A stretch of 64,000 nucleotides of DNA from Escherichia coli (GCF_044324875.1 NZ_CP172185.1), one strand, 5' to 3'. Positions 18,084-19,798 are shown, numbered from the stretch's first letter. Translations and numbers: made by a program. Notes: a model not told the origin generated them from the letters alone.

Positions 18084-19798
18084 TTATGGGAAACCTGAAT
18101 GAAACAGAAAAGTGGGAAGAAAATATCTATCAACTGGAGACATCAGATCCGGTTCTGGGTGGTGCAGACGGGATATCAAATCGAGCCCCCCGGCAACTGG
18201 CAAACAGGACGAAATGGCTGAAGAAGAAAACGGAGGAAGCCGCACAGTCACTGGCTGAACACGTACGTTCCCGTAACCACCCGGACGCGACACTGACAGC
18301 TAAGGGGTTCACCCAACTGAGCAGTGCCACCAACAGCACCTCTGAAACGCTGGCCGCCACACCAAAAGCGGTCAAGGCTGCATACGACCTGGCAGCCGGC
18401 AAGGCGCCTGCCAGCCACACTCACCCGTGGAGTCAGATAACGGGAGTGCCTGCGGCTTCACTGACGGCAAAAGGCACCGTACAACTGAGCAGCGCCACGG
18501 ACAGTCAATCAGAAACTGAGGCTGCCACGCCGAAGGCTGTGAAAATCGCGTATGATCTGGCCCGGGGAAAATACACAGCCCAGGATGCAACAACGACCCG
18601 TAAAGGGATCGTACAACTGAGCAGTGCCATCAACAGCACGTCTGAAACGCTGGCCGCCACACCGAAAGCGGTCAAGGCTGCATACGACCTGGCAGCCGGC
18701 AAGGCGCCTGCCAGCCACACTCACCCGTGGAGTCAGATAACGGGAGTGCCTGCGGCTTCACTGACGGCAAAAGGCACCGTACAACTGAGCAGCGCCACGG
18801 ACAGTCAATCAGAAACTGAGGCTGCCACGCCGAAGGCTGTGAAAATCGCGTATGATCTGGCCCGGGGAAAATACACAGCCCAGGATGCAACAACGACCCG
18901 TAAAGGGATCGTACAACTGAGCAGTGCCATCAACAGCACGTCTGAAACGCTGGCCGCCACACCGAAAGCGGTCAAGGCTGCATACGACCTGGCAGCCGGC
19001 AAGGCGCCTGCCAGCCACACTCACCCGTGGAGTCAGATAACGGGAGTGCCTGCGGCCTCGCTGACGGCAAAAGGCACCGTACAACTGAGCAGTGCCATCA
19101 ACAGCACGTCTGAAATACTGGCCGCCACACCGAAAGCGGTCAAGGCTGCATACGATCTGGCAAACGGAAAACAACCGGCAGATGCCACGCTCACTGCTCT
19201 GGCAGGACTTGCCACTGCAGCAGATCGGTTGCCTTATTTTACCGGAGCAGACCGCGCAGCGCTGGCAACCCTTACAGCTATTGGTCGCGCTATTATCGCT
19301 AAGGGCAGTATAAAAGATGTCCTCAATTACCTTGGTTTGGGGGAAGGCTCTGCATTGCCTGTTGGTGTACCGGTTCCATGGCCCACCGCCACACCGCCAG
19401 CAGGCTGGTTACAGTGCAACGGAGCTACGTTCACCAAAGAACAATATCCTGTTCTGGCCAGAGTCTACCCGACCCTCCGTCTTCCCGATTTGCGCGGTGA
19501 GTTTATCCGTGGATGGGACGGTGGTCGCAAGGTTGATACCGGGCGTGCGCTACTTTCATTTCAGGAAGGGACTATCGTATCCGGTTTTGATGATAATGAT
19601 ACCGGAGATATCAGTTCGCTCGGCTCTACACAATACGGATTTGGTGACGCTTTAACCTCTAATCAACTGGGGGTCATAAATGGCAAAAAGTGGATATTTG
19701 ATGCATCCTCTAAAGGTGCACAAAGATATGACTGGTGGGCTTATGTATCAGCTCGCCCCCGCAATATCGCATTTAACTATATCGTGAGGGCGGCGTGA
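18080..19798 (+). CDS. Tail fibre protein (constant part plus currently expressed variable C-terminus)
   Basis: 572 aa with repeated QLSSA..S.SET.AATPKAVK.AYDLA fibre motif; C-terminus lies inside the invertible segment. Confidence 0.85.
   Translation: MIMGNLNETEKWEENIYQLETSDPVLGGADGISNRAPRQLANRTKWLKKKTEEAAQSLAEHVRSRNHPDATLTAKGFTQLSSATNSTSETLAATPKAVKAAYDLAAGKAPASHTHPWSQITGVPAASLTAKGTVQLSSATDSQSETEAATPKAVKIAYDLARGKYTAQDATTTRKGIVQLSSAINSTSETLAATPKAVKAAYDLAAGKAPASHTHPWSQITGVPAASLTAKGTVQLSSATDSQSETEAATPKAVKIAYDLARGKYTAQDATTTRKGIVQLSSAINSTSETLAATPKAVKAAYDLAAGKAPASHTHPWSQITGVPAASLTAKGTVQLSSAINSTSEILAATPKAVKAAYDLANGKQPADATLTALAGLATAADRLPYFTGADRAALATLTAIGRAIIAKGSIKDVLNYLGLGEGSALPVGVPVPWPTATPPAGWLQCNGATFTKEQYPVLARVYPTLRLPDLRGEFIRGWDGGRKVDTGRALLSFQEGTIVSGFDDNDTGDISSLGSTQYGFGDALTSNQLGVINGKKWIFDASSKGAQRYDWWAYVSARPRNIAFNYIVRAA
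18296..19160 (+). repeat. Tandem repeat array, 300-bp unit, about 2.9 copies, in tail fibre gene
   Basis: 18341-18640, 18641-18940 and 18941-about 19080 are near-identical (1-2 mismatches). Confidence 0.9.
19328..19560 (+). repeat. Left inverted repeat of invertible fibre segment
   Basis: About 230 bp matching the reverse complement of about 20700-20942 at roughly 90 percent, with a near-perfect core 19358-19412. Confidence 0.8.

Follow-up and report, generated by a model that had tools for sequence, protein, structure and literature searches.

The tail-fibre gene of a prophage in the 64,000-nucleotide stretch of Escherichia coli DNA that we analysed (the window) contains a genuine 300-bp tandem duplication, and the number of units differs among otherwise near-identical prophages, a natural length polymorphism. 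We read this, with a probability of about four in five, as a recent in-frame duplication of the unit in the constant, shaft-encoding part of a BcepMu-like fibre gene, with a copy number that is polymorphic and probably changed by recombination or slippage.

Structure of the array and of the fibre gene

Tandem Repeats Finder detected a single array in the region, on the plus strand at positions 18314-19097, with a period of 300, 2.6 copies, 98% matches, no indels and a score of 1526. When the sequence was compared with itself at a lag of 300 (18314 to 18792), mismatches occurred only at 18330, 18340, 18364, 18757 and 18760. The stretch 18365-18756 is repeated exactly as 18665-19056, so that 692 bp (18365-19056) show perfect 300-bp periodicity. 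These are near-identical DNA units arranged head to tail, as in a VNTR, and their length is a multiple of three, corresponding to 100 codons in frame. A chance origin of the array was ruled out without a formal test, given the length of the perfectly periodic stretch. Half-unit periodicity was absent from the array on self-comparison at a lag of 150, because successive motifs lie 168 and 132 nt apart instead of at an even 150 nt. The initial annotation had described units at 18341-18640 and 18641-18940 that differ by a single base, and we recovered this difference as A at 18364 versus G at 18664. It had also counted about 2.9 copies; the partial third copy is present, but the 300-bp register is lost after ~19092 and the count had to be lowered to the value given above.

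The gene that carries the array (18086-19798, plus strand) encodes 570 aa from an ATG and consists of the constant part and the currently joined variable C-terminus; its mechanical open reading frame begins at a TTG at 18080. Six significant Pfam HMM matches to Phage_fiber_2 (PF03406; i-Evalue 1.6e-19 to 5.3e-18, model positions 1-40/41 of 42) were detected in the protein, together with a C-terminal Collar domain (PF07484, E 1e-14). Two of the Phage_fiber_2 motifs fall in each 100-aa unit, in agreement with the two shaft motifs per unit that had been noted by eye. The gene also matches tail-fibre PHROGs, and RefSeq lists an identical sequence as WP_106476169.1, annotated as 'phage tail protein'. 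Its position in a tail/baseplate module, directly after the P2-type baseplate genes V, W, J and I (15420-18083, plus strand) and before a tail-fibre assembly gene, together with these matches confirms its original assignment as a tail-fibre gene.

In a PDB sequence search, the Collar end aligned with the tip of T4 gp37 (2xgf, E 4e-13) and with a short tail fibre (9cuy, E 2e-16). The same search returned no solved multi-repeat shaft with the Phage_fiber_2 motif, only the single copy in Mu S. Little is known about this domain, which was first identified in lambda Stf (PMC3368898), and the central part of the Mu fibre has not been resolved (PMC11915804). An AlphaFold2 monomer model of the whole fibre, built on a 25-sequence alignment, is of low confidence (mean pLDDT 33, pTM 0.18); the sole feature in it is a short helix at every ...PKAVKAAYDLA..., and it is of no use for length estimates or for a fold search.

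The six motifs belong to two types of module that alternate in the order A1-B1-A2-B2-A3-A', all on the plus strand. Type A comprises 56 aa, with a long linker (...GKAPASHTHPWSQITGVPAAS) that contains one HxH, in the form H-T-H, and type B comprises 44 aa, with the short linker ...GKYTAQDAT. A1 (18293-18460), whose linker has the type A ending, is a diverged edge copy with a motif core identical to that of A2 at 98/111 positions. It is followed by B1 (18461-18592), A2 (18593-18760), B2 (18761-18892) and A3 (18893-19060); B1 and B2 are identical, as are the motif cores of A2 and A3, and two differences are found at the 3' end of A3, at 19057 and 19060. The terminal module A' (19061-19192) closes the array and is followed by the unique C-proximal constant region. 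This sixth motif is a chimera with a B start and an A body, out of the 300-bp register: its first 32 nt are identical to B, and 96/111 positions are then identical to A. With such a B-like start and A-like continuation, it resembled a further repeat to a reader working by eye. The span of 18296-19160 first proposed for the repeats accordingly fits the six-motif region (18293 to ~19192) and not the strict tandem array.

At the DNA level, the motif cores of A2 and A3 and those of B1 and B2 are identical (111/111 each), while A and B cores agree at 72-73 of 111 positions (~65%). Given this combination, the array shows an old A-B motif pair duplicated very recently as one 300-bp unit, and the recent expansion suggested in the initial annotation is upheld. 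Alternatively, all of the repeats could be old and kept alike by selection on the protein sequence; the Phage_fiber_2 motif is indeed old and widespread, with one copy in Mu S and many PHROGs matches. We consider this extremely improbable, as protein selection would not hold synonymous sites identical. Moreover, A and B are similar as proteins and yet diverged in DNA, unlike the identical A2/A3 and B1/B2 pairs, and the units cluster by array rather than by position. BA units differ at 0-3 of 300 nt within an allele, versus 11-16 of 300 nt between the lineage of the window and that of locus L020, and this greater likeness within arrays points to either internal homogenization or an independent expansion in each lineage. 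Other periodicities, of 56-aa and 112-aa units, occur in relatives.

Copy number among related prophages

The prophage is a BcepMu-like transposable phage that combines a head and transposition module of the Mu type with a tail of the P2 type; the label 'Mu-like' given at first is refined by this combination. The upstream genes of the relative in MS1494 are first those of a Mu-type head (DUF3486 small terminase, DUF935 portal, Mu F-like and G-like proteins), after which come the P2-type sheath, tube, tape-measure, X, D, V, W, J and I genes. PhiKM, the record of a related phage, contains a transposase and has been assigned to Bcepmuvirus. The window starts within the prophage, and host DNA is reached again at ~21653, inside lhr. 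At this right end (~21653 to 22575) the insertion lies in the lhr helicase gene, of which only the 3' part follows, and then grxD. The prophage-lhr junction was absent from the 5426 complete E. coli genomes, ~11% of which (609/5426) contain a prophage of this family. In other strains, the identical prophage allele is found beside 12 or more different host genes, which is expected of a transposable phage.

A second in-frame tandem duplication was detected at 12050-12584 within the tape-measure gene (10234-13185), with a period of 261 bp (87 aa), 2.0 copies and 250/261 identical positions; by coordinate arithmetic, a sequencing gap in the tape-measure gene of PhiKM falls in the same place. Tail length is set by the length of the tape measure, and the copy number could matter there too. 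Outside the prophage, ordinary chromosomal RNA genes were found at 35305-35462, 26322-26712, 53580-53640 and 59245-59352; they are two tandem tRNA-Val(GAC) genes (an 81-bp repeat by TRF) and the sRNAs STnc550, rydB and RprA.

Compared with the window, three related loci (L005-L007, 687 aa) contain exactly one additional perfect 300-bp unit, and a fourth (L004, 787 aa) contains exactly two. At a lag of 300, the near-perfect segment is 416 nt long in the window; in L005-L007 it reaches 716 nt and in L004 1016 nt, and all of these segments have one and the same mismatch. In unit notation, where uT is the last unit with its two private differences, the window is [u0, uT], L005-L007 are [u0, u0, uT] and L004 is [u0, u0, u0, uT]. 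When the extra units were deleted, the constant part was the same as in the window at 1248/1248 nt, so that these alleles differ only by whole units; the 3 kb upstream differ by 1-10 nt. The reading frame is kept in every copy-number allele. Complete chromosomes are the source of L004, L006 and L007, and the genes at the right flank differ among the three-unit loci.

A one-unit form (L008, 474 aa) comes from a related, slightly different sublineage. Of the 120 best database clusters, 97 begin with the same 66 residues (at least 98% identity) and contain 4-11 motifs in proteins of 474-843 aa. The fibre of the ST131-type prophage has three motifs in a 428-codon open frame from a TTG, and fibres with the same N-terminus therefore range from 3 to 11 motifs across the family. 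A shaft of variable length had been predicted from the repeats, with a comparison of related prophages as the proposed check; this comparison yielded two-, three- and four-unit alleles, and the prediction is confirmed for the number of units. We did not find this 300-bp copy-number polymorphism described in the literature that was searched.

In a flank query of complete E. coli genomes, spans of 3483/3484, 3784, 3820 and 4084 were present among the matches listed, which are a sample; in window-like arrays, the alignment of the right flank falls on an internal repeat (query end 2936). In one ST131-type genome (NZ_CP124420.1), the baseplate-to-fibre span is 1 nt shorter than its counterparts (3483 vs 3484), which may reflect a frameshift or sequencing error in or near the fibre gene.

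The repeats could also have misled the assembler into expanding or collapsing the array, in which case the true number of units would differ. The initial annotation had cautioned against this with good reason, since the perfectly periodic stretch exceeds short-read length and short-read drafts alone cannot resolve it. The draft of PhiKM (L019, PQ738613) illustrates the problem: its fibre gene (19287-20246) stops at 960 bp and is followed by unrelated early-region genes on the other strand, probably because of a contig join or a collapse at the repeat array, and the gap in its tape-measure gene lies at another repeat. Yet for the window we regard an artefact as distinctly unlikely, because the same count is found in many independent assemblies, including complete ones. 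MS1494 and PKF4, both complete RefSeq chromosomes, share an identical 1719-bp stretch with the window, at two sites that differ from each other and from that of the window. Another 16 contigs, of which five exceed 1 Mb, encode exactly the same 570-aa protein. In the 10 of these 16 contigs that we inspected, the 1713-bp gene shows 0-1 differences from that of the window, and the prophage is flanked by other host genes in each case; with the complete genomes included, the allele was found at no fewer than 12 insertion sites. Some of the agreeing assemblies are themselves short-read drafts. The three-unit allele likewise comes from three assemblies that differ in their right-flank genes; two of these assemblies are complete chromosomes.

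The gene is prone not only to misassembly but also to misannotation. In E. coli LS4 (L003, 4001-5287), and likewise in many ST131 genomes, an intact three-motif frame is annotated by RefSeq/PGAP as two pseudogene fragments, and full-length fibres of the family are named 'short-chain fatty acid transporter' in several database sources. Both the pseudogene call and the transporter name look like annotation errors caused by the repeats.

Unit gain and loss beside an invertible segment

Unequal homologous recombination or replication slippage between neighbouring units is the most likely source of the change in unit number, as judged from its products, namely the identical interior units and the hybrid modules in L003 and in the P1-type fibre P0017. 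The same process, or gene conversion, would keep the units of one array near-identical. Each allele is found unaltered at numerous insertion sites, and the number of units therefore changes rarely per infection; the change is fast only relative to point substitution.

From the sequence we infer a fixed lengthening of the shaft per unit in the trimeric fibre: in a trimeric rod, each unit would add one A-B segment, one HxH linker included, and the number of units would alter neither the baseplate anchor at the N-terminus nor the invertible receptor-binding domain at the C-terminus. The H-T-H in each long linker may hold a metal ion on the threefold axis, by analogy with the HxH of T4 gp37. Shaft length may influence adsorption. 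We suggest tentatively, as a rather doubtful extension, that the A-B unit acts as an adjustable spacer, the recombination-driven gain or loss of which would tune the reach of the tip, for example through O-antigen or capsule of varying depth, and that the shaft-plus-tip cassette is traded among BcepMu-, P1- and P2-like phages by way of the conserved motif core. If so, copy number would be a host-range determinant alongside the invertible tip.

The tip belongs to an invertible segment downstream, bounded by inverted-repeat arms (19329-19557 and 20711-20939) that are 86% complementary. From the alignment of the arms, we placed the left crossover region at 19320-19352 (...TTACCTTGGTTTGGGGGAAGG..., unstranded), with the crossover near 19334, and the right crossover region at 20916-20948 (reverse complement ...AAACGTTGGTTTAGGAGAAGG..., unstranded). 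These sites presumably resemble the crossover sites of Gin, Cin and Hin. The segment contains an alternative fibre C-terminus with a Collar domain (20419-20901, minus strand; from the ORF list and PHROGs) that ends in ...RSIALNYIVRAV and is fused to the same N-terminus in other genomes, so that both orientations exist in nature. Also encoded are a tail-fibre assembly chaperone (19805-20419, minus strand; phrog_105, E 5e-87; Caudo_TAP) and, adjoining the segment, a serine DNA invertase of the Gin/Cin type (21003-21575, plus strand; phrog_125 DNA invertase, E 1.4e-94; Resolvase and HTH_7).

The chaperone gene is single and is paired only with the alternative C-terminus; two Collar-domain C-termini with one tail-fibre assembly gene are found at 19329-20939 and also in L004-L007 and L009-L018. 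In the orientation of the window, no chaperone gene follows the expressed fibre end (...RNIAFNYIVRAA) on the same strand; in L004-L007 the other fibre end is followed by the chaperone. Either one fibre end folds without a dedicated chaperone, or one orientation gives defective fibres.

With a DNA invertase and an invertible fibre segment immediately downstream, and with copy number differing among near-identical phages, the array might itself be taken for a dedicated switch, that is, a contingency locus or the target of the invertase or of a diversity-generating element. We judge such programmed hypervariation to be very improbable. The array is confined to the constant part, with ~240 nt between it and the crossover downstream, outside the reach of the invertase, its long direct repeats are in frame and never switch the gene off, and each allele is stable over many independent lysogens. 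The neighbours of the fibre gene are baseplate, chaperone and invertase genes only. A simple-sequence contingency locus, with short units that shift the frame or alter promoter spacing, was ruled out by the length of the unit and its frame, and all alleles encode full-length fibres.

Exchange between phages and comparison with known fibres

Units with an amino-acid sequence identical to that of the window were detected behind other anchors, in P1-type S proteins (P0017) and in P2 gpH-type proteins (P0010 and P0058). P0017, a P1-type S protein on a phage-plasmid-sized contig, matches 89% of the query at 99% identity. The P1-type fibres also have a 100-aa unit of their own in four or five copies (811 vs 911 aa and 860 vs 964 aa). 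The A/B units and the C-terminus of the window occur together in P0017, P0001, P0004, P0044 and P0060 (contigs of ~92-249 kb) and in P0010 and P0058, and the shaft-plus-tip cassette is evidently common to the three phage types. Hybrid modules at the junctions, with a B start and an A end in L003 and a P1-type start and a window-type end in P0017, place the crossovers in the conserved motif core. They show that this core (...AATPKAVKAAYDLA...) also acts as a homology patch for the exchange of shaft and tip with P1-like and P2-like fibres. The unit exchange seen here fits the long-standing view of tail-fibre genes as mosaics common to P1, P2, Mu and lambda, as reportedly described by Haggård-Ljungquist et al. 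in 1992 and Sandmeier in 1994.

The array leaves the current view of phage fibre evolution unchanged and will not surprise a phage biologist, but its length could serve as a typing marker for the prophage family. On their near-identical background, the alleles with two, three and four units provide a natural experiment on shaft length versus adsorption and host range; they could also inform the design of fibres or tailocins with a defined length.

Length polymorphism of rod segments is already documented for prophage fibres and is ordinary for phage fibres. In EHEC prophage fibres, collagen-like and coiled-coil rods differ by whole repeat periods while the terminal domains are conserved, and some of these length-polymorphic fibres include the Phage_fiber_2 repeat (PMC3368898). 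The period is 3 or 7 residues in the EHEC fibres (PMC3368898), versus 100 residues with two globular-type motifs here. The Phage_fiber_2 fibres lambda Stf/StfR, P2 gpH, P1 gpS and Mu gpS share with the window fibre the same ~40-aa motif (E ~1e-19), which occurs six times here and once, at residues 111-149, in Mu S (PDB 5yvq/8ju3/9ki1). Unlike other fibres of this group, the window fibre has a 100-aa super-unit of two motifs that is present in tandem, near-perfect DNA copies and varies in number between near-identical prophages. As in the Mu G-segment and the P1 C-segment (Gin/Cin), an invertase and inverted repeats in the fibre coding sequence serve two alternative C-termini. In contrast to these systems, one tail-fibre assembly gene accompanies one C-terminus, where Mu has one per alternative end (S-U and S'-U'), and a tandem array is present outside the invertible segment. 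The window fibre resembles T4 gp37 and gp12-type fibres in its Collar end and its H-T-H linkers, and a passage of PMC11705849, with reference to the gp37 structure, describes HxH motifs that bind iron in T4 gp37. The HxH sites of the window fibre, which are candidate metal sites, differ from those of the T4 gp37 needle tip in lying within the shaft repeats.
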